Virus record (IMG/VR): IMGVR_UViG_3300038525_000015 | Coordinates: 16,980-80,979 of that record | Source: a virus | Lineage: Duplodnaviria > Caudoviricetes | Length of the DNA: 64,000 nt | Strand: one strand, 5' to 3' | Part shown: one piece after another, positions 5,083 through 61,100 of the stretch | Position numbering within the stretch: the first letter of the stretch is position 1 | Layout: the number at the start of each line of letters is the position of its first letter | Program-made: the position numbers and the translations under genes | The notes under the pieces: model-generated | Told to the model about the DNA's origin: nothing | Seen by the model: the letters and a program-made list of their open reading frames with translations, nothing else | Databases searched by the model: none

Positions 5083-5130
5083 GGGTCTGCCGGCGCTGAT
5101 AACACCGGCAGACCCGAACATTATAGCGAG
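5083..5130 (-). promoter_or_regulatory. Putative HEG promoter (-10 TATAAT) followed by leader hairpin
   Basis: TATAAT at the portal stop; perfect 11-bp stem GGGTCTGCCGG/CCGGCAGACCC with loop TGTTATCAGCG; no good -35 seen. Confidence 0.5.
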
Positions 5131-6497: not shown

Positions 6498-6501
6498 GGG
6501 G

Positions 6502-31431: not shown

Positions 31432-32466
31432 ATGGGAAGACGACCGACAAAGCCGGGCGCGATCGCTCGGCTCAGGGAGCGCCGCAAGCCCAGCGGCAAG
31501 GTGTATTACTACTACGACGCTGGCGGGAAGCCTCGCCGGGAAATCCCGCTGGGCAGCGACTACGGCATGGCCATCGTCAAATACGCCGAGCTCGAGCGCG
31601 ACCGGACGGCGGACGGCATTCGCCAGGCGGTGATCACCTTCGCCTACGTCGCGGACCAGTACCTGATCGAGATCGTGCCCACCAAGGCGCCGGGCACCCA
31701 GGACAAGAACAAGCAAGAGCTGGCCCGTCTCAAGGAGTTTTTTTGCGACCCGCCTGCGCCGCTGGAGGCCATCCAGCCGCAGCACGTCAAGCAGTACCTG
31801 CGTTGGCGGAAAAGCGCGCCGGTATCCGCGAACCGCGAGAAGGCGCTGTTGTCGGCCATCTGGAATTACGCCCGCGAAGCTGGATATACCGCGCTGGCCA
31901 ACCCCTGCGCCGGGGTCAAAGGCAACAAGGAGAAAGGCCGCGTCAACGTATACATCGAGGACAGCATGTTCCAGGCAGTCTACCAGGTGGGATGCGCCGG
32001 CTTGCGGGATGCCATGGACCTGGCCTACCTGACCGGCCAGCGCGTTGGCGACACCCTGCGCATGGATGAGCGCGACATCCGAGACGGACACATCGCGATC
32101 ACCCAGGCCAAGACCAAGGCGAAACGGCGAATCGAGATTGCCGGGGAACTGGCCGCGCTGGTCGAGAGGATCAAGGCGCGGAAGGCGGGTCACAAGGTCC
32201 GCTCAACGCGGCTGGTTGTGACAGAGGACGGCGCACCCATGACGGCGGCGATGCTGCGGGGCAGGTTCGACAAGGCCAGGGAGGCTGCCGGAATCCCGAA
32301 AGCTGAATTCCAGTTCCGCGACCTACGGGCCAAGGCCGGCACCGACAAGGCGGAATCGAGCGGCGACATCATGCAGGCTCGCGATCAGCTCGGGCACACC
32401 AGCGTGGTGATGACCGAGCAGTACATCCGCGAGCGTCGAGGGAAAAAGGTCTCGCCAACGCGGTAA
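31432..32466 (+). CDS. int: Tyrosine integrase
   Basis: 'LTGQRVGD', 'FRDLRAKA', 'LGHTSVVMTEQY'. Confidence 0.97.
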   Translation: MGRRPTKPGAIARLRERRKPSGKVYYYYDAGGKPRREIPLGSDYGMAIVKYAELERDRTADGIRQAVITFAYVADQYLIEIVPTKAPGTQDKNKQELARLKEFFCDPPAPLEAIQPQHVKQYLRWRKSAPVSANREKALLSAIWNYAREAGYTALANPCAGVKGNKEKGRVNVYIEDSMFQAVYQVGCAGLRDAMDLAYLTGQRVGDTLRMDERDIRDGHIAITQAKTKAKRRIEIAGELAALVERIKARKAGHKVRSTRLVVTEDGAPMTAAMLRGRFDKAREAAGIPKAEFQFRDLRAKAGTDKAESSGDIMQARDQLGHTSVVMTEQYIRERRGKKVSPTR

Positions 32467-34228: not shown

Positions 34229-37200
34229 TCACTCCCTCGCGCGAGCCTCCTCGATCCGCTTCCCTGCCCTCTCGGTCAGCCGGCTCTTGATGGCCTGCAA
34301 CCGATCCAGCTCCCGCCGCTTGCGCTCGCCGTCCCAGTCGCTGCGGCGCACCATATCCATGCGGGCATTGATGCCGCTGAGTTGCTTCTGCACCTCAGCC
34401 AGCGGTTTACGCATTGCCAGCACCTGCCGCTTCTCCTGAACCAACTCCCTCGCTTCATCCTTACGCCCCAGCTCCTGGAGACGCTTCGCGTCGGCATACA
34501 CCCGCCCGGATTCTTTCAGGCCTTCATAGAACAGCGTGCTGTAGCGGTCATACGGCGCCGGCGCGCCCAGGTCGCGGTAGAACCGCCGGATCGGCTGGTA
34601 CTCGTGCCAATGCTTCGCCGGCTCGCTCTCGCCGCCCGCTGCGCGCCAGACCGTATCAGTGATGCCGGCGCCCCAAGCGCCAACCTGACCGAGGTAGCCC
34701 CTGATCAGGTGATCGGCCTGCAGCGACGAGAGTGCGAATTCTTCGCCCAGCACTGCGGTGGCCGAGGAAATCGCTTTCGCCGGCGCAGTGCTGCTCGCTC
34801 GATCGCGCAGGGTTGGGCTCACTTTCTCCATCCCGGCGCTCTCGATAGGCCGGCCGGTGAAAGCATCCCTGTTCGAGTACACATCCAGCGCTGGCTGGAA
34901 CATCTGCGGCACCGGACTGAAGCTGAACGTTTGGGTGAGCATCGCCCACAGCCGCTCGCGAAACAGCTTGCCGCTGGCCTTGTCGTCGACTGCCTGTTCA
35001 GCCAGACGCTCCACCAGCGTGGAAATGGCACCCACCTCGAACGGCTTGGGCAGGAAGAAGGCGTTATCCCCGACGCGGAAGAACCAGAAGCTGTCCTTCT
35101 GCCAGTCCTCGAGCTTGCGGTACTCCTCGTCGTCATGGTTCGCCAGGAAAAGCGCCAAGCTGGCCAGCGCCAGCGCACCGGTCACCGCGGCGAACCGGGC
35201 GGCCGCCACCTTGTCGCTGTTGGTGCCCTTGCCGAAGGCAACCTTGACCGCCGGCTTGAAGCCCGAGCGATACAGTTTGTCGAGGCCCTGCAGGCGAGCA
35301 TTTAGAAATGGCACAACGCGAATCAGGAAGCGCACCGCCGGCCAGGCGCCTTCCTGGCTGAAGTCCATCAGATCGCGCGCCTCGTAGGCGGCGCGCAGCG
35401 CACCCTTGTCCTTGTTCTGCAGGAAAGCCGCCGCCCGATTGGCGTTTTCGGCGGTGTTAGCCGCCTCGTTGTAGGCGTCCCAGCCGGCCACCAGCAGCTT
35501 CGGCACCAGGGCGGGAGCGTCCAGCAGCTTCGCGCCGCGCAGGGAGCGCTTGAGCCCGGCCTTCACCTCCTCGGGATCCGCACCGTAGATATGCCCGAAG
35601 CTGAATGCACCACCACTGGCCAGCATCTGCGCCCTGGTCTTCTGATCGCGGAAGGACTTCAGGCCCTGAAACATGTTCGCTGGCACGTTCTTGCTCACCG
35701 GCGTGGTGGCGGCGGCCTGCATCGAGTCGCGCAGGAAGTTGGCGATGATGAACTGCGGCGTGATGGTGGTCATGTTGGTGAACACCCGCTTGAACTTGGC
35801 CATGGTGCGCACGGCGAAGTTGTTGAGCCCCGGGTCGGCCAGCGAGCTCAACGCCTCGAACACCAGGGCATCGTCCACCTCGTACCAGACCTTATCGCCC
35901 TTCTCCAGAACGAAGGTGCTGGTCTTGGGATCGCGTGCTGCCTCTGGGACCTTCCGCGCAATCTGCAGGCGCTCAGCGTTGGCGATGGTTTGCGCCGCGG
36001 CCTGGTTCTTCAGGCTGGCCGTCAGCAGGTGGTGGAAGTTCATCAGGGTGTTTTCCAGCAGGTCATTCAGATTCTGCTTCCCGCCCTTGAGCTTCTTGTA
36101 CGCCTCCTGCCGACTCAGCCCCTTGGACGAAACCGGGCCCTTCGCCTTGGCCTCTTCATCCATGACCCGATAGAACGGGACGTAGAACTCGTCCCGCCAC
36201 ATGGCACGGTTCTCGGAGCTGATAATGCCGGTCTGCTCAGCAATGGCCAGCACGTCGTCGCGGTACTGCTGGAACTCCTTGAAGACCTCATCGTAAAGCG
36301 ATGCACGGGTGCGGCCGTCTTCAGTGACACCCCTGTTGATCCCTTTCAGCGCCTCGATGTCCTGGGCGGTGAACAGGTTTTCCCTGCCCTCTGCCGCGAG
36401 CTTGGCCGCCCGATTGCCGGCCACCCAGCCGAAGAAGCGCTCGATTTCCTTCGCATCCCCAAGCCGGCCCAGCACTTCACCCAGACCCATACTGCCGTCT
36501 TCGCGCATGCCGATCACTTTCTGCTGCGGATCGAGGACGATGCGGCCGTTGTGCATCATGGCGTTGAGCGCACCGGCGGCCGCCGGCGCCATGCGGGCCA
36601 GTACCCAGGCGCTGCTGGTGATCGAAGTGTCGAGGAAGTCGAGGCCGTGAGCCTTCTCGTCGAGTTCCTTCAAGGCGGCGTAGCGATCGACCAGGCCCTG
36701 GCGGATCTTGGTCATAGCGCGGTCGGCGCGCTCGCGGAACCAGAGCGTTGCGCGCTGGCGAGCAGTCGGGGGAGCGATCTTGCCCAGCGCATCGCGCTCG
36801 GCCTGGCTGAGATCGGCGAAAGCTTCGGAAACGTGGGGGCGCGTCGACCGCAGCGAGTAGCGGGTGTCTTCGGAGGGGTCTACAGGTGCTTCAGTTCCGG
36901 ATCGATCGCCAGTTGCTGCTTGGCCCACTCGGAAGAGGCCTTCATCTCGCGCCGCAGAGATTCGATCTCGGATTTCGTCAGGCGATAGTTGCCCTTTGTC
37001 GAACGTGAGGAGGGTTCGAGCTTCGGACTGGGTGAGCCCTTCGAAGCCATAACCGAAGGTTTCACGCCACCAGGGTTCGATATCGCTGTACTTGCCACGG
37101 ACTTGCGCCAAGGTGTCGGGATCAATCGCAAGTTTCCGTGAGTAGTTCTTGCCGGTCAAGGCAAGCGCTGCCAGCACCTGGCCGCCGTTGTCCTCGATGT

Positions 37201-40200
37201 GCGTCTTCAACTGCGCCAGAGTTCCACCCTGGGTCAGGGTGTCGTCGAGGAGCAGGTACTCAGCGGCGACCACGCCACCATCGAAGGTCGGCTGATTGGC
37301 AATGCGCTCCAGAGCATTTGACTGGGTCCGACCAACCTTCTGCGCCTGCATCACATTGGTGTCGGTCTCCAAGCCCAGGCGCTGCGCCAGCACCTCGGCA
37401 GCCATCAGCGGAATCCGATTGTCCCCCGCACCCTCGCGCGCCAGCACCGGCACGATGCGCGGCAAGCTGCCCTCCGGAATCAGCGCTCGCACCCGCTCGA
37501 TGAACTCCGGCGTTACAGCATCGCGGGCGACGCGCAGCGCGGCCGCGTCGTCGCCGGCCTTGGCTGCGGCGTAGTCGGGGTGGTTGTTCAGGAAGCTCAG
37601 GGGGTGCGCCAGCACCGTATCGGGGAAATCCGCCGCCCAGCCTCGACGGGAGTAGAGCTGGTCGGAACCAGACAGGTTCGCGCGCTGCGCACGCAGCCAG
37701 TCCCGCGACTGCTCGATCAGGGCCAGCACGTCGGTGTAGGTCCAGTTCACCTGGGGGAACAGCTTGCGCAGCAACTCGCGGATCTTCGACGCCACACGCT
37801 GAAGCACGGTCGGTCGGTCGCCCGACTCGGCCAAGTGGGCAATGATCTCCTCGGCAATCAGCAGGCGCTGCTCCGCTGCGCTCTTGCCTTGGAGCACGGC
37901 GGCGTAGTGCTCGCGGATCTGCGCCACCCGCTGCCGGCCGGTGGTGCGGGCCATCTCGCTGGAATAGATGCGTTCCAGCGTGCCGTCGAGCTGATCACCC
38001 AGCAGGCCGCGAATGCCCTGGTGGCCAACCATCTCGTGCACCGCGGTGCGGATGGCTTCTTCCAGATCCTGCTGGTTGTCGGCGACCAGGTACTGCGCAT
38101 CCGGCCGAAACACACCGCGGACATCATGGGACCGCACACCATCACGCTCAGCGCGGATTCGCACCGACAGAGGCAAGTCGCCAAAGGCCTGCACCACTTG
38201 GATGCTTGCTAGCTCAGGATGCTTATCGATCTCCGTTTGGATTTCCACCGCCGACACCTGGCCACGGCCGTCTAGGCGGTACATTTGGACGCCACTATCC
38301 GTCTCGCGCGTTTCGATGATGCCGAAGAGCTCATCAAACGCAGCACGCACTGAAGGGAGCTCTGCAGCTGTTAGGTAGGGGTAACGATCCGGGTCGCTGT
38401 ATGCCGTCTCCGATACGATATTCGCCAGGTAATCGCTGCTAATACCAGCGTCCTGCAGCTTGGCTATGACATGGCTTTCGAAGGCGCGAGCCGACATTTC
38501 CAGCGCCGTTGACCAGTAATCCTTGCTGCGTGTTGCGTCTAATTGCTCGGAACGCTTCTGCAAGTCTGTCGCCCTGAGCGCACTCATCAGACGACTGAAG
38601 GCTTCGATGAGCTCGGGGCGTACACCCTCACCGCGCTTGTAAGGCCGCTCAGTGAGATAAGCATCCGGCTGACTTCTGGCCCGACTGAGGTAGTTGTCGA
38701 AGGCATGCCACCACTCATGCGCCAGCGAGCCAGCACCGTTCCCCTTGGTCAGGTTAATGACAGTCTCGCCCGACTCGTAATGCGCTTTTGCCGGGTCAGG
38801 CCCACCTCTACCACGCGCACCGAACGCTAAAGCGAGCTCTCCATTGAGCGACAGAGCCTTGGCCGGGATGTTCAAGATGCCGGCCAAATCACTCAGCGCG
38901 TCGAATGCTTCGTTGAGCTCTTGCTGCCGACGGTTGTTTTCAACGTAGTTGCCAAACTGCACACCACGAAAACCGAAGGTCTCGCTGAACAGCTCGGGGG
39001 TAACATCCTGGCCATTCCGGTAGTCGACCCCAACCCGAGGCGCGTTGCCTTCACCTCGGTGCGCGGGCACCTCTTTTAGCGCGTCGTACTGCCTTTCTAG
39101 CGAACTCTGATTTTCGCCCAGATACTTGCGTGCCTCTGCCAAGCTGTCGAACGATCGAAGCCGCGCAACGCGCTTGCCATTTTTTTTCCCAATGAAATAG
39201 CCGCGCTCGCCACGCTGAGAGAACACATCGAAGCGGATGGCGTTGTCGGCTTTTTTCTTCACAGACTCGAGCTTGGCATGTACCTCCGCAAAGGCGTCCA
39301 AGGCTTCCTGCTTGGTGTTACCGGAGGCCAATTCTTGCGGCCAATTACTCAGCGCCGTAGCTTTTGCATCCTTGCTGGCAATCCATTTATTGACGTTTTT
39401 CTCGCCTCGATACATCGAGAAATAGCGCTCGGCGAACGTAATGCCCTTGAGCGAATGCGCATGTCCAAAGCGCTGATACAACTCCACCCGGCCAGCCAGA
39501 CCGCGCAACGCGGGGTGGTCGTCGTAGAGGCTTGAGCGAACCTCTTCGGTGAGTTCGCCGTGATCCAAAATCCGGCGCGTCGCATTGCGCAAAAGATCAA
39601 CCTGGTCAGCCCACCGACTCAGCTTGTATGGATTGCTGGGTTTGGTGGGCACCTCATCTCGGGCAGCATGTGCAAAAGCAACCGCCCAACGGTCACCACC
39701 CTGATCCAGAAGTGCCTGATAGTCCGGTTCAGGCCAAGACTTAGACAGCGGTACCGCTTTCACGTCCGCTTGCATCGCCACGTCGAGCTGCTGCGTATAG
39801 GACGAAAACTTGCGCGCGCCCTCGATTCGCTCTCCGAAGTCGTCGATCTTCTTTGTTGGCTTGGGTGTAGCGGCTGGTTTTTCGGCGACTACCTGCTTGG
39901 CCGGCAGAGTGTGTTCCACTTGGTCGCGCTTGGCGGGAGCGTTGCGCTCCGCGCCCGATGCCAGTTTTTGCTCAGCTGAAGAGCCGGAGGAGGTGTCGCT
40001 TACGCGGTCGGTTGCTGCAGGGCCTGCTTCGCTTGCCGACGAGCCAGGCGCTCCTGCGTCGCTTGCTCGATGCGCGCCTGCAGCTCGTTCTGGCGCCTTT
40101 CCAGCTCCACTGGATCGCTGGTCCCGAAGTGCTCGATCGCTCGTTGGAGCCTGGCTTCCGCTGACATGCTGGGTACCTTTTTTGCTCTGATCCATCGCCC

Positions 40201-43200
40201 TATCGGCGGCGTTCATGACATCCGCAGAAGTGAGGCCTGCTTCGATCGGGGAAACCCCCAGATGCAGCCCCACGCCACGTTTGGACTCGTCGTCAGGATG
40301 CTTCGGGTGGACGATCTTGTCCAGCCCTTCCCGGCGCGTGTAGGCCTTGGCGGCCGCCTGGCCACGCTCCAGGGCCGCCTCGACTGCCGCTCGCTCGCCG
40401 CCAATCACCAGCACGCCGAACTCGTCGCCGCCGGTGCGGAAGCCTTCGACATGGCCGACCGCGCCCAGCTCCTTGCGCACGATGTCCGCCAGCGCCCGGT
40501 AGTGCTTGTTGGCGTCCCGAGCCACGTTGTTGAAATGCGCGTTCAGTCCACCCAGGTTAGCGATGTCGGCGCTCACCCAGTACGCCTCGCCGTCGGTGGC
40601 GGCCACGTACTCGATGGCTCGGCCAATGGCGCGCTCAGTGTCAGTGCTGCCGTCTTCCGCTTCGCGCCGGCCCTCGAACAGTCCGGTGGTGGCATCGATG
40701 GGTGCGGAGAAGCGCGACTTGCTGGCCAGGCGCTCGGCCACGTCCGGGGCCACGCCGTCGGCGATGTACTCGTCGATAACGGCCTGGCGGTAGGAGTCCG
40801 CATAGGGCGTATAGCCAGCAGCCGGCCCCTGCTCGGCGCGCCCTGCCTGGGCGAGATCCTGGGCCGGCTTGGTCAGGTCTCCCTTGAGCCAGCGCTTGAA
40901 CTGCTCGACCGGCATGGCCGTGACCTCGCCCACCTTCCAGTCCGGATCGAAGTTGGAACGGTAGGCCTCCACCGCCGCGGCCTGGTCGGGATAGCCCAGC
41001 ATCACCTTGTGCTCATCGAAGCTGCCATCCTGCTGGTGGAGCTGGTCAACGATGAACACCTGGTCGCTGTCTTCCTGCGGCCCTAGGTACACGTCGACCT
41101 GCTCTTGGTCGGCGCCAACGGTGCGCTTGATGTAGCCGTAGTGATCGCTCATGGTGTGACGCCACTCGGTACCATCCGGGCGCTTGCCGCTGCGCTCGGA
41201 GCCGCGCGGATTCTCAACAGCGATATCCAGGCCGGCGACGCGCACATGCCCCTTGCGGTAGTTGCCGGTCTCAATCTGCGCCGGCGTGGGCGCCGGCAGG
41301 TCGTTGTTCGGGGAGGTGGCCGCCTGATCTGCCTGTTGGTCGATCGGACGTGCCGGACGCAACGGCTGCGGTTCCTGCTGCTTGGGCACTGCAACGGCCC
41401 AGCCATCACCGTGGCGCACGATCTGCGGCTGCTCGCCAGCCTTCGCCGCCTCGCGATACAGGAGGCTCGCGCGCGCATCGCCGCGCCCCTGGAACGGCTT
41501 GCCGTTCTTGCGCAGCCGAATTTCCAGATCCGGCGCGCCGCTGGCGTCAGCAGTTGGAGCGTGCTGGTCCATCCCGCGCCCGCCCGGCAGCGGCCGTTCG
41601 GGATTCGGAGCCACGAACGGCCCGGTCGGCCCCCGCTGAGCATTGCCCTGGCTATCCACCACGATGCTATCCGGGGCGGGCAGTGCCTGGCGCTCCGGTG
41701 CGGCGTCGACCGTGGCAGGCTCCGCGGCTGCGCGCCCAGGTGCCGCCGGCCGACTGCCATACTGGAACTCGCCAGCCAACGGCGCCGGTTCGCCTCGCGG
41801 GGTCGGCTGATCCATACCCGGCCCACCGGGCATGCGCTCCGGATCGTTCTGCGGATTGACCCACTGGCGTGCCTGCAGATCCGGCCGCTGCTCGCCGTCC
41901 ACGTTGCGCACCGGCCCGGTGTCTTGCACGTTGCCTTGGCTGTCGGCATAGAAGACCTTCTCGGGCGCCGGCAGTGCCTGGTGCTCAGGTGCCGGCAAAG
42001 CGCCGGGCTCGGGGGTGTTCTCGAAGGTGGCTTCGGGGGTCGCGAGATCCTGGGCTGCAGCGCTAGCAGGCCTGACGCGCGGCGTGGCCACCGCACCCAG
42101 CCCCCCACCCATAACAGCGCCAGTGGCGAGGCCGCCAAGCCCTGCGTTCAGCACGCCAGCGCCAAGCTTTCGATTCGGGTCGGCGTCCTGCATGGCGTAG
42201 TTCTCTGCCACCTGCTGCCCAATCGACTGCGGCAGCTCTTCCAGCAGGCCTTCGCCAACCGCGCCCTTGGCGATACGCCCGCCGATACCCGCTGTCACCC
42301 TGCCAGTCAGCAGGTTGGCCAGCGCACGGTCGCCCATGCCGCCGAAAACACCCGTGGCCGCGCCAGCTATGAGCAGGCCTTGGGTGGCAGAGTCCTCAGC
42401 CAGTTGCGCCCGCGCTTCCTCCGGCTTAAGCCCCTCTTCCAGCAGCGTCTGAAACGCCTCGGACTGCTGCAGTTGCTCCAGCGGCATGGCGGCGATCTGG
42501 TCGCGCACCTGGCGCGCCGTGTCCGCTCCGCCCAGCAAGCCCTCGGAAACGCCGCCGGCCACGGTCGCCATGCGTGCGGCGGCCTTCGCCGCCACTGCTT
42601 TATCCCCCGTCTTGGCCAGCGCGCGAGCATAGGCGCCCTTGGCCAGCCGGCCCGCCGCGCCCATGGTGATGGCCATCTCCGGCAGCGACTGGATGATGCC
42701 GCTGGCGTAGGCGCGCGGATCAGTCCAGGCCGAGCCGAGCGAACCGGTTTCCTCATCCCACCACAACTTCTGCTGCGCGCCACGCATCTCGGGGGTCAGG
42801 TTCTGCTGGTACTTCTGCTCGTTTTCCCGCAGCAGCGTTTCGGAGTCCTTGCCCGACAGGAAGCGGTCGGCGGCATCACCCGCCGCCAGCAACCCTTCGC
42901 CCACCACCGGGATGCGCCCCACCAGCTCGCGCACGTTCTGCGCCGCGCGGTTGACGCCTGCTGCCAGGAGGTTGCCTGTGTCGGTGAGCAGATTGCCGCT
43001 TTCCGGGGATTCCGCATCAGCCCCAAGGGTCGACCGACCAAGCGTGCTCTGCGTGTCCTGGTCGAACAGCTCGCGGGCACGCGGCTCCATGCCTGCTGGA
43101 ACCCGAGGCATAACCACTTCTTGGAAGTAGAGTTCGCGAGCACGCTCTTGGCGTTCGGGCGCCAGCGCGCGGAATTGCTCGCTGGCAGCCACCTCCGCCC

Positions 43201-43231
43201 AGCGGCGGGGTTGGCGGGTTTCGTTCTGCAT
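34229..43231 (-). CDS. Giant polyvalent virion/ejection protein (3000 aa): InPase-like, GGDEF, LPD5/LPD1-like, zincin metallopeptidase, PRTase-like, LPD38-like domains
   Basis: 'GNYRKGH..YGYI..T.GAD..VDVY..FDEHKVMLG' (~40880-41290); GGDEF at 40418-40432; 'KKIDDFGERIEGARK'; 'GSLAHEWWHAFD'; 'AVHEMVGH'; 'LLLDDTLTQGGTL'; C-terminal 'FFLPKPFEVG'. Confidence 0.92.
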   Translation of the reverse strand: MQNETRQPRRWAEVAASEQFRALAPERQERARELYFQEVVMPRVPAGMEPRARELFDQDTQSTLGRSTLGADAESPESGNLLTDTGNLLAAGVNRAAQNVRELVGRIPVVGEGLLAAGDAADRFLSGKDSETLLRENEQKYQQNLTPEMRGAQQKLWWDEETGSLGSAWTDPRAYASGIIQSLPEMAITMGAAGRLAKGAYARALAKTGDKAVAAKAAARMATVAGGVSEGLLGGADTARQVRDQIAAMPLEQLQQSEAFQTLLEEGLKPEEARAQLAEDSATQGLLIAGAATGVFGGMGDRALANLLTGRVTAGIGGRIAKGAVGEGLLEELPQSIGQQVAENYAMQDADPNRKLGAGVLNAGLGGLATGAVMGGGLGAVATPRVRPASAAAQDLATPEATFENTPEPGALPAPEHQALPAPEKVFYADSQGNVQDTGPVRNVDGEQRPDLQARQWVNPQNDPERMPGGPGMDQPTPRGEPAPLAGEFQYGSRPAAPGRAAAEPATVDAAPERQALPAPDSIVVDSQGNAQRGPTGPFVAPNPERPLPGGRGMDQHAPTADASGAPDLEIRLRKNGKPFQGRGDARASLLYREAAKAGEQPQIVRHGDGWAVAVPKQQEPQPLRPARPIDQQADQAATSPNNDLPAPTPAQIETGNYRKGHVRVAGLDIAVENPRGSERSGKRPDGTEWRHTMSDHYGYIKRTVGADQEQVDVYLGPQEDSDQVFIVDQLHQQDGSFDEHKVMLGYPDQAAAVEAYRSNFDPDWKVGEVTAMPVEQFKRWLKGDLTKPAQDLAQAGRAEQGPAAGYTPYADSYRQAVIDEYIADGVAPDVAERLASKSRFSAPIDATTGLFEGRREAEDGSTDTERAIGRAIEYVAATDGEAYWVSADIANLGGLNAHFNNVARDANKHYRALADIVRKELGAVGHVEGFRTGGDEFGVLVIGGERAAVEAALERGQAAAKAYTRREGLDKIVHPKHPDDESKRGVGLHLGVSPIEAGLTSADVMNAADRAMDQSKKGTQHVSGSQAPTSDRALRDQRSSGAGKAPERAAGAHRASDAGAPGSSASEAGPAATDRVSDTSSGSSAEQKLASGAERNAPAKRDQVEHTLPAKQVVAEKPAATPKPTKKIDDFGERIEGARKFSSYTQQLDVAMQADVKAVPLSKSWPEPDYQALLDQGGDRWAVAFAHAARDEVPTKPSNPYKLSRWADQVDLLRNATRRILDHGELTEEVRSSLYDDHPALRGLAGRVELYQRFGHAHSLKGITFAERYFSMYRGEKNVNKWIASKDAKATALSNWPQELASGNTKQEALDAFAEVHAKLESVKKKADNAIRFDVFSQRGERGYFIGKKNGKRVARLRSFDSLAEARKYLGENQSSLERQYDALKEVPAHRGEGNAPRVGVDYRNGQDVTPELFSETFGFRGVQFGNYVENNRRQQELNEAFDALSDLAGILNIPAKALSLNGELALAFGARGRGGPDPAKAHYESGETVINLTKGNGAGSLAHEWWHAFDNYLSRARSQPDAYLTERPYKRGEGVRPELIEAFSRLMSALRATDLQKRSEQLDATRSKDYWSTALEMSARAFESHVIAKLQDAGISSDYLANIVSETAYSDPDRYPYLTAAELPSVRAAFDELFGIIETRETDSGVQMYRLDGRGQVSAVEIQTEIDKHPELASIQVVQAFGDLPLSVRIRAERDGVRSHDVRGVFRPDAQYLVADNQQDLEEAIRTAVHEMVGHQGIRGLLGDQLDGTLERIYSSEMARTTGRQRVAQIREHYAAVLQGKSAAEQRLLIAEEIIAHLAESGDRPTVLQRVASKIRELLRKLFPQVNWTYTDVLALIEQSRDWLRAQRANLSGSDQLYSRRGWAADFPDTVLAHPLSFLNNHPDYAAAKAGDDAAALRVARDAVTPEFIERVRALIPEGSLPRIVPVLAREGAGDNRIPLMAAEVLAQRLGLETDTNVMQAQKVGRTQSNALERIANQPTFDGGVVAAEYLLLDDTLTQGGTLAQLKTHIEDNGGQVLAALALTGKNYSRKLAIDPDTLAQVRGKYSDIEPWWRETFGYGFEGLTQSEARTLLTFDKGQLSPDEIRDRISAARDEGLFRVGQAATGDRSGTEAPVDPSEDTRYSLRSTRPHVSEAFADLSQAERDALGKIAPPTARQRATLWFRERADRAMTKIRQGLVDRYAALKELDEKAHGLDFLDTSITSSAWVLARMAPAAAGALNAMMHNGRIVLDPQQKVIGMREDGSMGLGEVLGRLGDAKEIERFFGWVAGNRAAKLAAEGRENLFTAQDIEALKGINRGVTEDGRTRASLYDEVFKEFQQYRDDVLAIAEQTGIISSENRAMWRDEFYVPFYRVMDEEAKAKGPVSSKGLSRQEAYKKLKGGKQNLNDLLENTLMNFHHLLTASLKNQAAAQTIANAERLQIARKVPEAARDPKTSTFVLEKGDKVWYEVDDALVFEALSSLADPGLNNFAVRTMAKFKRVFTNMTTITPQFIIANFLRDSMQAAATTPVSKNVPANMFQGLKSFRDQKTRAQMLASGGAFSFGHIYGADPEEVKAGLKRSLRGAKLLDAPALVPKLLVAGWDAYNEAANTAENANRAAAFLQNKDKGALRAAYEARDLMDFSQEGAWPAVRFLIRVVPFLNARLQGLDKLYRSGFKPAVKVAFGKGTNSDKVAAARFAAVTGALALASLALFLANHDDEEYRKLEDWQKDSFWFFRVGDNAFFLPKPFEVGAISTLVERLAEQAVDDKASGKLFRERLWAMLTQTFSFSPVPQMFQPALDVYSNRDAFTGRPIESAGMEKVSPTLRDRASSTAPAKAISSATAVLGEEFALSSLQADHLIRGYLGQVGAWGAGITDTVWRAAGGESEPAKHWHEYQPIRRFYRDLGAPAPYDRYSTLFYEGLKESGRVYADAKRLQELGRKDEARELVQEKRQVLAMRKPLAEVQKQLSGINARMDMVRRSDWDGERKRRELDRLQAIKSRLTERAGKRIEEARARE
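36880..37050 (-). CDS. Putative nested small gene (+1 frame) after PRTase-like domain, 56 aa
   Basis: MASKGSP...YRLTKSEIESLRREMKASSEWAKQQLAIDPELKHL; GC3 bias shifts into this frame. Confidence 0.55.
   Translation of the reverse strand: MASKGSPSPKLEPSSRSTKGNYRLTKSEIESLRREMKASSEWAKQQLAIDPELKHL
40000..40167 (-). CDS. Putative nested small gene (+1 frame) after GGDEF domain, 55 aa (not in ORF track)
   Basis: AAGGT RBS; MSAEARLQRAIEHFGTSDPVELERRQNELQARIEQATQERLARRQAKQALQQPTA; GC3 bias shifts into this frame. Confidence 0.6.
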   Translation of the reverse strand: MSAEARLQRAIEHFGTSDPVELERRQNELQARIEQATQERLARRQAKQALQQPTA

Positions 43232-54719: not shown

Positions 54720-55283
54720 TCAGGTAAAGCGCGGGTGCACTCGGTAGGTGCCGGCCTGGTAGCCCTCGCGGGCCAGTTGCCTGGCATCGCTCTGCGCAGC
54801 CAGGAACTGACGGCGGTAGAGCTCGGCTAGCTGTGGGTTCTGCCAGGGCTGCGGTAGCAGCAGCAGGCGGTAGCGGGCACCATCCATGAGCGCCCCGCTC
54901 CAGCGCGCCAGCAGCTCGGCCGGCATGTCCTGGCCGTGGGCCGGGCGGCAGGCCATCGAGCCCAGCAACGTAATGCTGTCCGGCCGGCCCCGCAGGAACT
55001 CGACGCCGTTGCTGCCGGTTTGCAGGTAGTCGTAGCCGGGCTTCAACGTCTGGCCGCTGGGGAGACGCAAGTCGATCAGGCGCAGGGCTTCGGCGCCGGA
55101 GGGCACTTCCACCTCGGCATAGGGAGTGTTCGCTCCCACCACCACCGGGCCATCGTTGAAGATCCACGCGTTTCCTTCGGTGCACAATTCGCGCTGCGCC
55201 CAGCGGAGCATGTCGCGGATCAGGGGGCGTGGGCAGCCTGGCACTTCCAGCACCAGGGCATCCACCATGTCGTCGAGCCTCAT
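54720..55283 (-). CDS. Head-tail adaptor-like protein, 187 aa
   Basis: 'EVPGCP', 'ELCTEGNAW', 'QPWQNPQLA'. Confidence 0.7.
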   Translation of the reverse strand: MRLDDMVDALVLEVPGCPRPLIRDMLRWAQRELCTEGNAWIFNDGPVVVGANTPYAEVEVPSGAEALRLIDLRLPSGQTLKPGYDYLQTGSNGVEFLRGRPDSITLLGSMACRPAHGQDMPAELLARWSGALMDGARYRLLLLPQPWQNPQLAELYRRQFLAAQSDARQLAREGYQAGTYRVHPRFT

Positions 55284-55936
55284 GCGGAACCGTCTCCGGC
55301 CGGACTACTACCGGCATCAGCCTGGATCTTGAGACCCAGCGCCGCCTGGGCGGCCTGCGCGTGCAGGCTCGCCCGTGCCAGATTGGCTTGCGACTCGGCG
55401 TCCTTGGCGAAAGCTCGGGCCAGCACCAGATCAAGCACTATGGGCGTATAGGCGTCAGGCAGGCGCAGAGGGTCGTTGGAGTTGGGCGATGCCTCGGCTT
55501 CAGCATGCCGCTCAGGGAGTTGTGCGACGATGAGGTTCAGCCGGACGCCAACTTTCGCCGGCGGGTACACCCAGAAGCTGCGCGGATTCAGGTCCTCGAA
55601 CATCCAGTGTTCAATCGCATCGGTCTGCGGCTCGGCCTGCCAGCGCCTGCAAACAGCGTCCATCGTGCCCCGCGCCACGCGGGTAACTCCAAGACCAGAC
55701 ACTGTGCCGATGACGTCGATCAGTTGCTCGGCACCATCAGGGATGGCCTGCTGCGCGCCAGCCTGGCATGCCATCTCCACGGTCGTCGCGAAGGCGCTCG
55801 GCCGAATACTCAGCAGCGCGGCATAGGCCTCATTGAGCCAGTCCAGCAGCTCCTTGTTACTCCAGCGCGTGCCGTCCTGGCTGCGCTCCTGTAGCACCGT
55901 CCGTGCACGTCGCAGGATCTCCCCGACGGTTGCCAT
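55280..55936 (-). CDS. Head-tail adaptor/tail tubular A-like protein
   Basis: 'RW...ELLDWLNEA', 'RSFWVYPP', 'RAFAKDAE'. Confidence 0.75.
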   Translation of the reverse strand: MATVGEILRRARTVLQERSQDGTRWSNKELLDWLNEAYAALLSIRPSAFATTVEMACQAGAQQAIPDGAEQLIDVIGTVSGLGVTRVARGTMDAVCRRWQAEPQTDAIEHWMFEDLNPRSFWVYPPAKVGVRLNLIVAQLPERHAEAEASPNSNDPLRLPDAYTPIVLDLVLARAFAKDAESQANLARASLHAQAAQAALGLKIQADAGSSPAGDGSA

Positions 55937-55939
55937 GGC

Positions 55940-56353
55940 TCACAACTCCTTCATGTGCGGCAGCGCGGCGAGCTCCGGCGACCAGGCGAACTGGCGCTTG
56001 TTCTCGGTGTTCAGCAGCATGCGCTGAGCTTTGGCCGGCTCGGGCTCCTCCGCCTCGTCCTCCTCAAGCGAGGGCAGCGACACGGCAGCCTGACCGGCCT
56101 CTGACGCCTGCTCCGTGATCTGGCCAGCCGCAGAGGGGGCGGTGTTGGGCGCGAGCTCGGTGTTGCCACCCTGTTCACCAGTACCAGCACCGGCCTCGGA
56201 CTCAGCACCCAGCCCCTTCAGCACTTCGGCGCGCAGGGTCTCCAACGCCTTGCGTTTGTCCAGATCGATGCCCAGGTACTCCTTCACCAGCGATTCCAAC
56301 GCATCCTTGGTGGCGGCAGCCTTCACCGCCGTGATCAGTTCGTTCAGTCCCAT
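55940..56353 (-). CDS. Head accessory protein, 137 aa
   Basis: GGAG RBS; 'LGIDLDKRKALETLR'; follows capsid. Confidence 0.7.
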   Translation of the reverse strand: MGLNELITAVKAAATKDALESLVKEYLGIDLDKRKALETLRAEVLKGLGAESEAGAGTGEQGGNTELAPNTAPSAAGQITEQASEAGQAAVSLPSLEEDEAEEPEPAKAQRMLLNTENKRQFAWSPELAALPHMKEL

Positions 56354-56409
56354 GGTTGTCTCCCGACAAGGAACGCCGCCCCGAAGGGCGGCAGGAATGG
56401 CGCTACCGC

Positions 56410-57333
56410 TTAACCCTTCTTCGCCACCAGATGGCCCATGGCCTTCGGGTCGATGACCTTGTAGCCATAAACGTTCAGGCCGCGAATGAGGTTGCCGAAC
56501 TTGGTCGGGTTCTTGAGGGTTTCCAGCTTGGTCAGCTGGCTGGCGAAGGTCAGCGACTTCTTGTGGCCGAACACGATGTTGGTGTTGCCGCCCACCACCG
56601 ACATGTTGTTGCTGACGTAGGTGGTGAAGTTGTCGAGCACACCGATCTTGCCGTTGCGGATGACACTGGTGTCGTCGCCGGTGATACCCGCGTCGCGCAG
56701 ATCCGACTTCTTCAGCAGGTTCTTCACCCAGGCCGGGATCACCAGCCAGCGGCCGTCCTCGGGCACGTTCTGCTCGTCCAGCACCGAGCCGATGTCGGCG
56801 ATGTAGTCGAGCACGTTGTCCTTGGTCAGCGTCACCGGCGCGGCGGCGGTGCCCAGGTCGTAGGCGGACGACTTGGCACCGGCGGTAGCCCCGGCGTTCT
56901 CGGCGCCGGCATCGGCGTAGATGGTGGCCAGCACCGAGGTGTCGATGCTGATCTTCATTTGCTGGCCGCCGTCTTCGGACCAGCTGTCCATCAGCTTGAT
57001 GTCCGACTGGTAGGACGCCACGTCGTCGCACTCGAAGGCAAAGTACTTGCCCTTGTCGATGCGCAGCTCAACGGGCGGCGATTCCGGCTGTTCGTAGGTC
57101 AGCGTCGCGCCCATCTTGTGGTCACGAATGGTCAGGGACGGCGTGGTGCGGATGATCACCGTGTCGCCCTGGTTCTTGATCTCGCCCTCGTAGTCGGTGT
57201 TGGCGATCTCAGCGAAGCAGGTACGGGCGTACAGCTTCTCGATCAGCTTGCCCGACCAGATCTGCGGGATGAAACGGCTGGTGCCGTTGGAGCCGTAATC
57301 GGCCTGGCCGGTTTCGACTGGATAAACTGCCAT
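56410..57333 (-). CDS. Major capsid protein, 307 aa
   Basis: 'FIPQIWSGKL', 'NTDYEGEI...GDTV.I', 'GLNVYGYKV'. Confidence 0.92.
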   Translation of the reverse strand: MAVYPVETGQADYGSNGTSRFIPQIWSGKLIEKLYARTCFAEIANTDYEGEIKNQGDTVIIRTTPSLTIRDHKMGATLTYEQPESPPVELRIDKGKYFAFECDDVASYQSDIKLMDSWSEDGGQQMKISIDTSVLATIYADAGAENAGATAGAKSSAYDLGTAAAPVTLTKDNVLDYIADIGSVLDEQNVPEDGRWLVIPAWVKNLLKKSDLRDAGITGDDTSVIRNGKIGVLDNFTTYVSNNMSVVGGNTNIVFGHKKSLTFASQLTKLETLKNPTKFGNLIRGLNVYGYKVIDPKAMGHLVAKKG

Positions 57334-57374
57334 GATGAATCTCCTAACGCCTCACGGCGTGGGGTTGGGCGGTC

Positions 57375-58328
57375 TCAGCGGACGCGCCCGGATGCGGTGG
57401 CGGCGAAGATGTCGGCCTCAATGCGCTCTGCCTCTTCCCGTGAGTACTTGCCGCGCGCCTTGTCCTGGTAGAACGCGGAGATTTCCGCGCCCGTCCAGAT
57501 CTTGCCGGCGGCGGGTGCTTCGGTGCTGCGGGTCTGCTTCGGCTGAATCGCCTCGGCAGGGACTTCACGTTTCGGGGCCGGCGCTGCGCCGGTTTCTTGG
57601 TGGTAGGCGTTGAAAATCGCGATCACCCGTTCCGCGCTCAGCGCCTGCTGGGCCTGCACCAGCGCCTGCTGACGCTGCAGCCCACTGAGCGGGTCGAATT
57701 TGGCCAGCCAGGCATGGAATGCCGGGTCGGCGTTGATCGCCTCCAGACGCGGGATGCCGGCATGCAGGGCGGCCCAGAATCGAGCCTCGGCGTCCTGGCG
57801 GCTTTCCTCCTGACGCTGCTGCTCGGCCTGCTCAAGGCGCTCCAGTTTCTGCACCAGCTCGGGATCAGGCTGCTGAGCCTGGCCGATGCGGCGCTGAATC
57901 AGGGTCTCCACCATGGCCAGCATTTCCGGGCCGAACTCCGACAGCTGCTCGTCACTGAGCTGGCTGATAGTGTCCAGCGCGTCGCGCGCACTCGGAGCGG
58001 CCGCCGCGGGGGCTGCCTTGGCGTTGGCCAACTCGGCCTCCAGCTCGCGCACCTTGGCGGTCAGCGCCGGCACCTCGGCGTTGTACTTGCCCTGCAGGGT
58101 CTGGAAACGGTGACGCCAGTAGGCGGCATCCTCATCCTGCTTGGGCGGCACAGCCGGTTCGGTAGCGGGTTGCTGCTCGCCATCCGGCTTGGCCGGCTCG
58201 GGCACCTTTTCCGGCTCCGGCAGAGCCGCCGGATCAGCCTCGGAGGGCTGCTTGGCGGGATTCTCCAGGCTCTGGAAGTGCTGGTTGGCTTGCTCGATCT
58301 GCTTGCGCAGCTGTTCGGGTAATTGCAC
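57375..58328 (-). CDS. Capsid scaffolding protein, 317 aa
   Basis: AGGAG RBS, GTG start; 'W.HRFQTLQGKYNAEVP', terminal 'I..A...GRV'. Confidence 0.8.
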   Translation of the reverse strand: MQLPEQLRKQIEQANQHFQSLENPAKQPSEADPAALPEPEKVPEPAKPDGEQQPATEPAVPPKQDEDAAYWRHRFQTLQGKYNAEVPALTAKVRELEAELANAKAAPAAAAPSARDALDTISQLSDEQLSEFGPEMLAMVETLIQRRIGQAQQPDPELVQKLERLEQAEQQRQEESRQDAEARFWAALHAGIPRLEAINADPAFHAWLAKFDPLSGLQRQQALVQAQQALSAERVIAIFNAYHQETGAAPAPKREVPAEAIQPKQTRSTEAPAAGKIWTGAEISAFYQDKARGKYSREEAERIEADIFAATASGRVR

Positions 58329-58473
58329 GTTGTTCTCCTGACGTCTCTCGACGTTATTGCGTGAGCCGGATGCCCGGGATTCACCATGGTTGCGGGAGGA
58401 TTCGCCGGCCTGGCCAAGGCCCGGCGAGCACCCACAGGAAAACCGCTCGTGCGGAGCGGCTTTGCTGTGCGCC

Positions 58474-58692
58474 CTACCGTTTGACTGCTGCAGCGAACAG
58501 CTCCAGCAGCTCATTCAGCATCTGCGCCCGCCCCTGCAGTTGCCGGAGCAGGCGGTCATCAGCGCAGGAAACCAGGCTGGCCTTGTGGGTGGCCAGCTCC
58601 TGCTCCAGCAGGCCCCGGAACTCCTGCCAATCGGGGGTCGCTTCCCGCTCCAGGCGCGCCAAAGCCTGGAGCTGCCGGTCGTTGCACCGCAT
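58474..58692 (-). CDS. Hypothetical protein, 72 aa
   Basis: 'LRQLQGRAQ.L.EL' motif, between portal and scaffold. Confidence 0.75.
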   Translation of the reverse strand: MRCNDRQLQALARLEREATPDWQEFRGLLEQELATHKASLVSCADDRLLRQLQGRAQMLNELLELFAAAVKR

Positions 58693-60769
58693 TCATGCCT
58701 CCGATGAGGGTCATCAGGCGCTCCACCTGGAGCATCAGCAGGGCGGTCTCCGCCCGGGTTTTCTCGGTGTCGGCCTGGGCGTCCTGCGCCTTGGCCTGCT
58801 TCAGCGCGGCCTCGATCTCGGCCATCTGCTGCTGGATCTGCTGGGTCTGGGCATTGGCCGCGTTCTGCTGCTCCAGTTGCTGCCTGACCTGCTCGTCGTC
58901 CGGCACCAAGTCGGGCATATCCAGTCGATCGAACACGGAGCGCAACAACGCCGCGACCTTCTCCGGCCCCAGGATCTGCTGCACCAGCGGACTGTTGAGC
59001 GCCAGCTGCAGGGCTTCCTGGCGCAGCACCTGGGTGCGCTCGCGGTTGAGCATGGCGTTGGAGCCTCGCGCCACCGCGCGGCAGTCGCCCTTGATGGTGC
59101 TGTCGTCGCTGTAGCGCATGTTGAAGAGCCACATGGCTTCAATCACCCGGCGCAGCACGCCGCGATCCACATGGCGGATGGCATCGCGAATGCCCTTGTT
59201 GGCCGACTCCATCAGCATCGACAGACCGCTGGCCGTGTTGCCGGCGCCACCGACGCGCTCGTTGCCATACAGGTAGCGCGGCACGTTGGTGGCGTCGTCG
59301 GCCTTCTGCTCGAACTTCTCGTACAGGGCCATCAGCTCGGCGATGTTCGAGCTGGGCTGGAAGAAGCGAATGGCTGGGTCGTTGTTGCTCACCATCGAGG
59401 ACTTGGTACGCCAGACCTTCCAGGGGAACGGCCGACCATCCTCCTCCGGTTGCAGGCGATCCCAGTTCACTTCGATCTGTGGGCCACTCGCCACCGCCAT
59501 GTTGTTGATCATGGCGCGCGCCGCGGCGTTGCAGGTGTCCTGGATGTCAGCCATCAGCTCTGGGATCGACTGTCCCCAGAACGAGCCCGGCACCGGCTGG
59601 AAGCTGGCCTTGTGGTATGGCCGGCGGCCCAGCGGATCTCGATTGATCACAGCGCGAATCACATGGCGGCCGACCAGAATGGCCTCCACCTCATACTCGC
59701 CAAGTGGATCCTCCACCGCCTCGGCCGGCATGCCCCACTGCAACAGCGAAACGCCTTGGGCGCTGCCGTGATACAGCAAACCGTCGATGGTTTCCGCTGG
59801 CGACAGCAGCGCATCCCGGCGCCCTTCCAGCGAGGCGCGTTCACCGTCGGTCCACAGCCAGTCGCGCAGGCCGCCCTGGCCGTAGTCGCGCAGCACCGCC
59901 TCCAGGGCCGCGTCGGAGTAGCCCGGCACGCCGCCACGCAACTGGTTGAGCTGCGCCCGGGTGTAGCGCACGCGCTCCAGCAGGTAGGCGCCATCGTCGA
60001 TGGTCACCGCATCGGGCGAGGGGTACAGGTCGAACGGCGCCACGCGCTCAAACTCCGGCCGTACCTCCTGGGTTTCGACCAGGTTCCATCCCTCGGTCCA
60101 CTTGAACGACGGCACGCGGCGCAGGACCGGCGCCCGAAGGACTGCCGCCGGAAAGGTCACGAAGTCGTCGAGGAACGACTCGAAGGCCTCATCCCAGCCA
60201 CCCTCGGCCAGTTGGTCAGCGATCACCTCTTCCATGGCATCCGCTGCAGTCCGGGCGCGCTTTTGCACCTCGCGCAGGATGATTTCCTTGATCCGCTCGC
60301 GGCTGGGCATTTCGACCTGGCCGCCCTGCCCGGCCGCCTGCTGCAGCTGTGCCTGCAGGCGCTGGCCGAAGGCCTGGATGTACTCCAGCGGCACGTCCGG
60401 CAGCGGTGTCGGGTCGAGACCCCAGGGCCGCTCATTGGTCGGCATGAGGATCTCGCGCAGCCAGGCAGCCGCCGCTCGGCACTTGGTGGCGGTCAGCATC
60501 ATGTAGATGGCCGACCCACCCTGCTCGGCTATGGCCGCAAGCTTCTCCGCGTCGTACTCGCCCTTGCGCCGGCGCAGGCAGTCCAGCATGCGCTGCTCAA
60601 CAGGCTGCTTCGCCTGCTTGGCCGACTCCCAGCACCGGCGAATGTGCGCAGCCAGCGAGGACTCGAACACACGCTTGCGGGCGTCCTCCTGCAGGCGCAG
60701 CTCTTCCGCCTGCTGCTCGGCCACCAGCTCACCGGCAGACTTGAACGAGAACAGCCCCAAGTCAGCCAT
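58559..60769 (-). CDS. Portal protein, 736 aa
   Basis: Follows TerL; 'MLTATKCRAAAAWL', 'SFWGQSIPELM.D.Q', 'TASGLSMLM'. Confidence 0.9.
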   Translation of the reverse strand: MADLGLFSFKSAGELVAEQQAEELRLQEDARKRVFESSLAAHIRRCWESAKQAKQPVEQRMLDCLRRRKGEYDAEKLAAIAEQGGSAIYMMLTATKCRAAAAWLREILMPTNERPWGLDPTPLPDVPLEYIQAFGQRLQAQLQQAAGQGGQVEMPSRERIKEIILREVQKRARTAADAMEEVIADQLAEGGWDEAFESFLDDFVTFPAAVLRAPVLRRVPSFKWTEGWNLVETQEVRPEFERVAPFDLYPSPDAVTIDDGAYLLERVRYTRAQLNQLRGGVPGYSDAALEAVLRDYGQGGLRDWLWTDGERASLEGRRDALLSPAETIDGLLYHGSAQGVSLLQWGMPAEAVEDPLGEYEVEAILVGRHVIRAVINRDPLGRRPYHKASFQPVPGSFWGQSIPELMADIQDTCNAAARAMINNMAVASGPQIEVNWDRLQPEEDGRPFPWKVWRTKSSMVSNNDPAIRFFQPSSNIAELMALYEKFEQKADDATNVPRYLYGNERVGGAGNTASGLSMLMESANKGIRDAIRHVDRGVLRRVIEAMWLFNMRYSDDSTIKGDCRAVARGSNAMLNRERTQVLRQEALQLALNSPLVQQILGPEKVAALLRSVFDRLDMPDLVPDDEQVRQQLEQQNAANAQTQQIQQQMAEIEAALKQAKAQDAQADTEKTRAETALLMLQVERLMTLIGGMNAVQRPAAPGFGAPGAGSDPRLAGVPGPAGAGAGHPQGQPGFLR

Positions 60770-61100
60770 GCATCACCGCCATTACAGACGTCAGGGTTTC
60801 AGTGCGGGCACGCTGAGCGCGGTACCGCAGTGCGTTGAGCTGGGTGAACTGCTCGGCCAGGCAGCGCGCCGGATCTGCGGCAAATTCGTCCAGGCGAACG
60901 TGCAGGGTCACGCCGAACTCCTCAGCGATGTCGAAGGTGAAGCGCATGCCGGGGAATTCCCGGGCGCCTTCGGTGATCCTCACCGGGTCGATCTGCACAG
61001 GCCCAACGTCCGACCGATTGCGCTGGGTGGGCACTGCGATACGACCCAGTTGGCCAGCAATGAACGCCGCCGCCTGCCGGGCTTCCAGCTCGATTCTCAT
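60762..61100 (-). CDS. Hypothetical protein, 112 aa
   Basis: ATGA overlap with terL stop; GGGAG RBS. Confidence 0.7.
   Translation of the reverse strand: MRIELEARQAAAFIAGQLGRIAVPTQRNRSDVGPVQIDPVRITEGAREFPGMRFTFDIAEEFGVTLHVRLDEFAADPARCLAEQFTQLNALRYRAQRARTETLTSVMAVMHG

Follow-up and report, generated by a model that had tools for sequence, protein, structure and literature searches.

Introduction

The closest described counterparts of the domain discussed here, which lies in a 3000-amino-acid (aa) protein (P0002) encoded by a tailed-phage DNA stretch of 64,000 nucleotides (positions 16,980 to 80,979 of the IMG/VR virus record IMGVR_UViG_3300038525_000015; the whole stretch is referred to as the window), are the canonical diguanylate cyclases (PleD, WspR, DgcB and Idiomarina PadC; PF00990). 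These have the same palm fold (Z 16-18) and have in common with it the D-x-x-T-G opening, the metal-binding Asp, the sugar-face Asn, the R-x-GGDEF signature and the C-terminal Lys, whereas it is only 14-24% identical to them, reads DIxNLGGLN for DIDxFKxIN, has an Asn in place of the guanine-reading Asp, is devoid of the RxxD inhibitory site (I-site), has an HPK loop added and, rather than following a sensory or receiver domain, is embedded in a giant phage protein. The Hypr enzymes (GacA and Bd0367), which make 3',3'-cyclic GMP-AMP (3',3'-cGAMP), likewise combine a non-Asp reader of the Watson-Crick face with GGDEF, in keeping with the “Goldilocks” rule for Hypr, by which the enzymes with Ser/Thr at that position are always GGDEF and never GGEEF, and it is by the change of Asp to Ser at position 344/348 that a diguanylate cyclase becomes such a cGAMP-making enzyme (PMC6456294). 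A Hypr structure from Geobacter (6d9m) is among the sequence/structure matches of the domain, which nevertheless differs from Hypr in having Asn instead of Ser/Thr and in the lack of a Rec domain.

GGDEF domains in polyvalent proteins were predicted by Iyer, Burroughs, Anand, de Souza and Aravind in 2017 (e.g., in Acetonema longum WP_004096050.1) and are called “not very widespread” in that work (PMC5512222). The concept is the same as the one considered here, i.e., a GGDEF domain for cyclic nucleotides that is joined to unrelated enzymes within one giant phage/prophage protein whose delivery on invasion is predicted, and the class as described there also has InPase, PRTase, metallopeptidase (MPTase) and LPD domains. 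The general idea of a GGDEF domain in polyvalent proteins is, hence, already known, whereas a clade of 388 representatives that is definable by a signature, has an altered residue for specificity and often occurs in tandem copies goes beyond the text consulted; what is new here is this large and poorly annotated clade with its altered base reader and invariant motif, the tandem pseudo-dimers, and the demotion of a coupling to InPase. Two further kinds of phage proteins invite comparison. The stand-alone phage GGDEFs (Bacillus phage SP-15, phage G gp350 and Bordetella phage CN1), although they are the top structural matches in BFVD, are small proteins encoded on their own, bear the annotation of ordinary diguanylate cyclases, have 14-19% identity to the domain, and are not domains of virion-module giant proteins. 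The N4 virion RNA polymerase, P1 DarB and the “DarB-like” protein of Serratia phage Parlo, on the other hand, are giant (3000-3800 aa), stand at the end of the structural module and have the N-terminal region in common with P0002, whereas their cargo (RNA polymerase, or methyltransferase and helicase) differs from the InPase, GGDEF-like and PRTase-like domains of the latter; the giant virion RNA polymerase of N4 is ejected in multiple copies (PMC13434306).

Fold assignment of the domain

Translation of the plus strand of the 40175-40705 region yields no meaningful protein, as the domain is encoded on the minus strand (aa 843-1019 of P0002). A preliminary description of this stretch, which gave no strand, had listed four motifs, and all of them are indeed found there in the order that it gave: DATTGL (aa 846-851), SADIANLGGLN (aa 887-897), RTGGDEFGV (aa 932-940) and ADRAMDQSK (aa 1009-1017). 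The placement of the GGDEF pentapeptide (aa 934-938) at 40418-40432 is likewise borne out by translation; 0.003 such pentapeptides would be expected from the composition of the protein, and this is the only GG[DE]EF in the six frames of the window.

A single-sequence phmmer search with the domain retrieved no GGDEF chain from the PDB (a BMC match at E 0.31 was dismissed as spurious), and a family profile (A1), consisting of a 20-sequence alignment of domain homologues, was therefore needed. With this profile, 30 PDB matches were obtained, nearly all of them named GGDEF or diguanylate cyclase, the best one being DgcB (6tts, E 9.8e-6) over the full length of the domain, while PF00990 matches 14 of the 20 family members at E<=0.01 (best 1.4e-13). 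An AlphaFold2 (AF2) model built with A1 (pLDDT 87.7, pTM 0.79) has as its Foldseek matches in the PDB, among the top ones listed, diguanylate cyclase GGDEF domains throughout (probability 1.0), and VIA-align superimposes it on WspR, Idiomarina PadC, PleD and DgcB with a Z of 18.1 and a root-mean-square deviation of 2.3-2.7 Å over 151-160 residues. A protein-language-model atlas led to GGDEF clusters only. A palm fold with the GG[DE]EF beta-hairpin is seen in the model and the structural alignment, an Arg precedes the signature at -2, and no Cas10/mCpol chain was found among the 30 sequence matches or the best 50 structural rows, an absence compatible with a distant kinship. The assignment of the GGDEF fold is secure.

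Active site and base-reading residue

Residue correspondences were taken from alignments of the family profile to solved GGDEFs, with the roles of the residues as given in PMC6456294, and conservation was counted over 197 domain copies cut from 158 representative proteins of the clade, of which a single-copy subset (n = 114) was also considered separately. Compared with the DxLTGLxNR of canonical enzymes, the opening motif reads D846-A-T-T-G-L...G-R-R, the Asn-Arg pair being replaced by Gly-Arg-Arg and the D, T and G being kept in the clade. The metal-binding D889 (the counterpart of PleD D327) is present in 113/114 single-copy members, and both N892 and N897, the latter corresponding to PleD N335, which contacts the base at the sugar face, are present in all 114. 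In the signature hairpin, R932 is kept in 111/114, G934 and G935 in 114/114, and D936 and E937 in 113/114 of the single-copy members; over the whole set, the third signature residue is Asp in 171/197 copies, with no Glu among the variants listed, and nearly every intact copy reads GGDE. The metal-binding Asp and the signature D/E-E of a diguanylate cyclase (D889, D936 and E937) are thus in place, as is its sugar-face Asn (N897). The catalytic positions are kept in 97-100% of the single-copy members (n = 114), whose overall identity is just ~30-45%; such conservation argues for catalysis rather than for a relic, and, judging from the sequence, the aa 843-1019 domain is very probably an active nucleotide cyclase.

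What such an enzyme would produce is another matter. The preliminary description spoke of a complete diguanylate-cyclase-like domain, of which the “complete GGDEF-type” part stands, the catalytic residues being intact, whereas “diguanylate cyclase” is not established, as the base reader is Asn908, occupied by N in 76% and by D in 22% of the clade copies. The Ser/Thr of the Hypr cGAMP synthases is not found at this Watson-Crick-face position either, although the GGDEF-not-GGEEF half of the Hypr pattern is; Asn908 could hydrogen-bond guanine or adenine. An earlier remark that some GGDEFs make cGAMP was, therefore, apt, given an Asn at the position that is Asp in the cyclases making cyclic di-GMP (c-di-GMP) and Ser in Hypr. 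With Asn instead of Asp as the base reader, a c-di-GMP product cannot be assumed: taken as a specific claim, it is doubtful, and c-di-GMP and a mixed/adenine-containing purine dinucleotide appear about evenly matched.

The I-site has been sought at its place in PleD-type enzymes, i.e., at -9 to -6 from the first Gly of GGDEF (five residues upstream of GG[DE]EF), where P0002 reads VGHV (aa 925-928), just as previously described. The absence of the inhibitory site holds well beyond this gene: RxxD is found at that position in 0/197 domain copies, which makes its loss a trait of the clade and not a peculiarity of the P0002 gene, and this absence is in itself not remarkable.

Extent of the clade and its tandem forms

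A phmmer search of 1.84 billion cluster representatives with the domain gave 388 matches at E<=1e-3, 240 of them at E<=1e-10, all these being representatives of 50%-identity clusters. The members, mostly giant proteins from Proteobacteria and Actinobacteria, can be recognized by the D-I-x-NLGGLN, A-N, R-x-GGDE, HPK and K signature, and the domains of the clade lie nearly always within giant polyvalent proteins encoded by phages or other mobile elements. Sampled relatives at NCBI are named for other domains (NUDIX, Fic, PP2C and methyltransferase). A scan of species-representative genomes with a single pattern located at least 21 loci, among them open reading frames (ORFs) of more than 6800 aa in Nocardia and of 4200-4500 aa in Trinickia and Variovorax, loci in metagenome-assembled genomes of Xanthomonadales, and stand-alone tandem forms of ~570-660 aa. 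A search of viral contigs with the single protein returned one weak locus, and tblastn of the domain gave nothing at E<=1e-3 in 72,556 plasmids. The chromosomal open frames of Nocardia, Trinickia and Variovorax (4200 to more than 6800 aa) carry tandem copies of the GGDEF-like domain; such chromosomal giant frames may encode polyvalent proteins that belong to integrative elements in Actinobacteria.

Two tandem copies of the domain are present in 52 of the 158 clade proteins. Where both copies of a pair could be aligned, D936 is kept in 22/41 first copies vs 35/41 second ones, and D889 in 25/41 vs 35/41, which suggests that the tandem forms may be cis pseudo-dimers with a single active site and keeps open a non-symmetric product in a part of the clade. 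Tandem forms with a degenerate first copy amount to a natural experiment on how GGDEF dimers turn asymmetric. In P0002, no second GGDEF-like copy, even a degenerate one, was found by hmmsearch with the --max option.

Sequence constraint on the gene

The gene was compared with that of P0006, a homologue from a metagenome that has the same architecture and is 94.5% identical. Over the whole gene, the ratio of nonsynonymous to synonymous substitution rates (dN/dS) is 0.16. The InPase, LPD5, PRTase-region and LPD38 domains are 96.6-99.3% identical at the aa level, with dN/dS values of 0.015-0.11 (0.07 for InPase), and the GGDEF-like domain is 85.9% identical, with a dN/dS of 0.31, whereas the linker that follows it (aa 1020-1110) is 61.5% identical and evolves neutrally (dN/dS 0.99). 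Neutrality of the main frame would suit a plain linker and an overprinted gene alike. The substitutions in the domain are concentrated at aa ~955-1010, a part that covers the helix following the signature as well as the final strand and loop, and its catalytic two-thirds are identical in the four closest homologues. The GGDEF-like domain is, in other words, constrained, with one face variable.

The polyvalent protein and its probable delivery

By the definition of Iyer et al. (2017), P0002 counts as a polyvalent protein of the phage type: it unites several unrelated enzymatic domains in one giant phage polypeptide (InPase, GGDEF-like, HExxH/LPD5/LPD1, PRTase-like and LPD38; Table 1), and its gene lies in a virion/structural neighbourhood. 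Of these domains, InPase and LPD38 are listed as phage-type-only, and PRTase is described in polyvalent proteins (PMC5512222). The PRTase-like domain of P0002, a candidate, contains the phosphoribosyl pyrophosphate (PRPP)-loop motif LLLDDTLTQGGT. The zincin-like region, which NCBIfam CLCA_X matches at 6.5e-42 (under the cut-off of that model), has an HEWWH motif and is a candidate self-processing peptidase; a metallopeptidase has been proposed to cut polyvalent proteins into units after delivery (PMC5512222). The membrane-like N-terminal part contains the aa 66-525 region, which has counterparts in giant phage proteins of the DarB-like kind and in the PHROG for N4-type virion RNA polymerase (likewise in the N-terminal region) and includes a Gly/Ala-rich stretch at aa 356-381 that is hydrophobic in the hydropathy analysis, while the C-terminal region of ~850 aa contains LPD38 and a strongly hydrophobic segment (aa 2680-2698).

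Table 1. Coordinates (window numbering) of P0002, its domains and motifs, and features of the two phage regions of the record
Feature	Position	Strand	Basis and remarks
3000-aa polyvalent protein ORF (P0002)	34229..43231	-	Last gene of the structural operon; Pfam and PHROG matches along the entire length
N-terminal region, aa 66-525	41657..43036	-	phrog_10089 1.8e-146; phrog_2206 4e-15
InPase, type I inorganic-pyrophosphatase-like, aa 651-783	40883..41281	-	PF18823 E 1.6e-54
GGDEF-fold nucleotide cyclase domain (activity predicted), aa 843-1019	40175..40705	-	Motifs, family profile, AF2 model, structural alignment
DATTGL, counterpart of the DxLTGL opening motif	40679..40696	-	D846 in 183/197, T849 in 174/197, G850 in 164/197 copies
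D889-I-A-N-L-G-G-L-N897, in place of canonical DIDxFKxIN	40541..40567	-	Alignment to solved GGDEFs
Asn908, Watson-Crick-face base reader (PleD D344, GacA S348)	40508..40510	-	Three independent hidden Markov model (HMM) alignments pair the family A-N with the canonical G-D
VGHV, aa 925-928, at the I-site (RxxD) position	40448..40459	-	Translation
R932-T-G-G-D-E-F active-site hairpin	40418..40438	-	Mg-binding Asp936; general-base Glu937 acting across the dimer
H975-P-K977, clade-specific near-invariant motif	40301..40309	-	H in 173/197, K in 182/197 copies; ordered loop, pLDDT 96-98
Lys1017, counterpart of phosphate-binding PleD K442, AD..m..sK helix	40181..40183	-	111/114 single-copy members
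Ser/Ala/Gly/Pro-rich linker, aa 1020-1110	39902..40174	-	Composition
Zincin-like region; HEWWH motif aa 1505-1509 = 38705-38719	38369..39037	-	Overlaps LPD5 1.4e-34 and LPD1 4.4e-17
PRTase-like (phosphoribosyltransferase-like) domain, candidate; PRPP-loop motif aa 1993-2004	36950..37627	-	phrog_22413 3.2e-58
LPD38 domain	34595..35131	-	PF18857 2.4e-40; preceded by the hydrophobic segment aa 2680-2698
Head-gene set 1	592..7776	-	Major head (phrog_283), scaffold, head morphogenesis, portal (phrog_145), terminase
Integrase	31432..32466	+	Integrase end of the first phage, ~1.8 kb from the polyvalent gene
Head-gene set 2	55280..63314	-	Portal (phrog_332), large and small terminase, structural genes running to the polyvalent gene

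A megablast search with the whole gene had as its sole match a 6% stretch in Serratia phage Parlo, which has 70.7% DNA identity to the giant protein gene of Parlo in the N-terminal region. The gene layout of Parlo is the same, a 3764-aa “DarB-like” protein ending its structural module, and the P0002 gene closes a podovirus-like structural module, in which small conserved genes and those for a tail fibre, tail tip, internal virion protein, portal and terminase lie upstream of it on the same strand. The probable injection of the protein, as suggested in the preliminary description, fits this context, the gene position and domain content matching those of virion-delivered polyvalent proteins; delivery of P0002 into the host is a reasonable inference because of the position of the gene, the N-terminal region that it has in common with virion proteins, and the LPD38/InPase content.

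The adjacent InPase-like domain is real (Table 1), but the idea that it drives the cyclase reaction by removing pyrophosphate (PPi) does not hold as a general one, since InPase was found in 9/158 clade proteins (a lower bound, from single-sequence phmmer), on either side of the GGDEF-like domain; other relatives carry NUDIX, Fic, PP2C, methyltransferase or SLT domains instead. With this count, InPase was rejected as an obligate partner. In P0002, where it lies 59 residues upstream of the GGDEF-like domain, PPi removal would be chemically sensible, and PPi clearance is suggested for the InPase domain by Iyer et al. (PMC5512222), yet the pairing may be a local convenience and not a conserved functional unit.

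Proposed mechanism and alternative explanations

The course of events would be as follows. The giant protein would be made late, together with the virion proteins. It would probably be packaged and enter the next host by ejection, in the manner of other terminal giant podovirus proteins, and its zincin-like HExxH region may cleave it into modules. Two single GGDEF-like domains would then pair antiparallel, each binding one purine nucleoside triphosphate through Asn897, Asn908, the Mg held by Asp889/Asp936, and Lys1017, and Glu937 would activate the 3'-OH of the partner, giving a cyclic dinucleotide and 2 PPi, as the residue-for-residue correspondence with solved enzymes implies. At the sequence level, no RxxD I-site is there for the product to exert feedback on the enzyme, and the neighbouring InPase may plausibly clear the PPi, although this pairing is not conserved. 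Takeover of the host by second-messenger flooding, exclusion of rival elements and jamming of nucleotide-based defence are candidates for the effect on the host; the preliminary description had put forward possible effects on motility, pili, biofilm and immunity. Taken as a whole, this scenario of an injected maker of a cyclic dinucleotide is somewhat favoured, with appreciably less assurance than cyclase activity as such.

Several observations weigh against this scenario. The curated GGDEF models fall short of their thresholds, PF00990 scoring 14.3 bits with the whole protein and 20.1 bits (E 5.7e-4) with the isolated domain vs a gathering cut-off of 23.8, in an alignment that covers only profile positions 77-157 (the C-terminal half), and TIGR00254 matching weakly at 19.5 bits vs a cut-off of 37.4. 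The Phe-Lys of DIDxFK is Leu-Gly here, the guanine-reading Asp of c-di-GMP-specific diguanylate cyclases is absent (Asn908), and, as HPK is without a counterpart in the studied enzymes, the chemistry could differ. The GGDEF-like domain is also the fastest-evolving folded domain of P0002 (85.9% identity, vs 94-99% elsewhere in the comparison with P0006), and, P0002 being single-copy, pairing with a second molecule is needed for activity. No PilZ receptor or EAL phosphodiesterase is encoded in the 81-kb record, and tblastn of the domain gave nothing at E<=1e-3 in 50,697 GenBank phage records. Finally, catalysis in the clade is a prediction, and the packaging and ejection of P0002 are deduced from the circumstances given above.

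How far these points favour other explanations can be judged from what each of them would have to accommodate. Chance resemblance of the motifs in a low-complexity giant ORF, which has the sub-threshold Pfam score and nothing else to commend it, is refuted by the 0.003 GGDEF expected, the 240 homologues at E<=1e-10 and the fold match at Z 18, and is left with a negligible probability. A domain that has retained the GGDEF fold only and serves non-catalytically, by nucleotide binding, as a sponge or as a scaffold, would agree better with the sub-threshold scores in curated models, the several changed canonical positions and a dN/dS above that of the other domains, and many natural GGDEF domains are degenerate receptors. 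Such degenerate receptors, however, typically lose GG[DE]EF while keeping RxxD, which is the opposite of what is seen here, and all residues for catalysis are present and kept in 97-100% of the divergent single-copy members, so this explanation is improbable. Somewhat less so, but still unlikely, is the same fold with another chemistry, i.e., the formation of linear pppNpN or of a short cyclic/linear oligonucleotide, or nucleoside monophosphate transfer, possibly by an asymmetric pair like those of Cas10-type or class III cyclases. The first tandem copies that often are without the catalytic Asp (in a clade with 52/158 proteins tandem) match the expectation for a pseudo-dimer that has a single active site, the base-reading position holds Asn rather than Asp, and HPK and NLGGLN are invariant and clade-specific, all of which would suit such a chemistry. 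Against it, diguanylate cyclases account for all of the best matches listed, by structure and by sequence alike, with no Cas10/mCpol in the top 50 rows, the general-base Glu and opening DxxTG typical of dinucleotide-forming GGDEFs are kept, and P0002 itself has one copy whose site is fully intact, a state more in favour of a symmetric homodimer.

A different objection concerns the place and time of action rather than the chemistry: the enzyme may be active and yet not be an injected weapon, acting late in the producing cell or in a lysogen, with the protein unpackaged or the domain removed before packaging. The gene has the same orientation as the late structural genes, so the new protein would accumulate in the cytoplasm before lysis, and no MuF or portal fusion was found in P0002 by the Pfam scan. 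The N-terminus, however, resembles that of the virion RNA polymerase and DarB-like proteins, the Parlo gene has the same position, hydrophobic segments are present at both ends, as in ejection proteins, and LPD38 and InPase are reported only from phage-type polyvalent proteins thought to be packaged (PMC5512222). This explanation is considered less probable than not by a wide measure, though it is the strongest of those weighed against an injected cyclic-dinucleotide maker.

A bolder reading, entertained only tentatively, would make of the clade a novel class of nucleotide synthases that are delivered by invaders and yield something other than c-di-GMP, namely an adenine-containing/mixed dinucleotide (or, in tandems with a dead first copy, an asymmetric/linear product). 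Their injection would serve to imitate, jam or forestall the nucleotide-based immune signalling of the host, or to take command of its physiology within minutes of infection. Known phage tactics include the destruction or sequestration of the immune nucleotides of the host, and a virion-delivered messenger synthase would be the opposite of these; to our knowledge, no virion-delivered enzyme that makes a second messenger has been demonstrated experimentally.

Genomic context of the source record

The IMG/VR record from which the window was taken is 80,979 bp long and looks like two neighbouring prophages or a chimera, as two full head-gene sets are found in it, both on the minus strand (Table 1). 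The first is accompanied by a lambda-like replication/cI/RecE/integrase region, and the phage to which the polyvalent gene belongs is represented only by a late region of ~30 kb. The two independent metagenome contigs with the giant gene, those of P0006 and P0002, both stop ~180-515 bp downstream of it; a genome terminus, an attachment (att) site or a repeat at this place would fit with contigs ending just past the giant gene.

Within the first phage, a homing-endonuclease-like ORF (4280-5254, minus strand; phrog_314 1.4e-30) lies between the portal and head-morphogenesis genes and overlaps the end of the portal ORF. A RecE-like exonuclease is encoded at 24459-26021 on the plus strand (phrog_7655 2.5e-210), the C-terminal ~40 aa of which match PHROGs of inhibitors of the host RecBCD.

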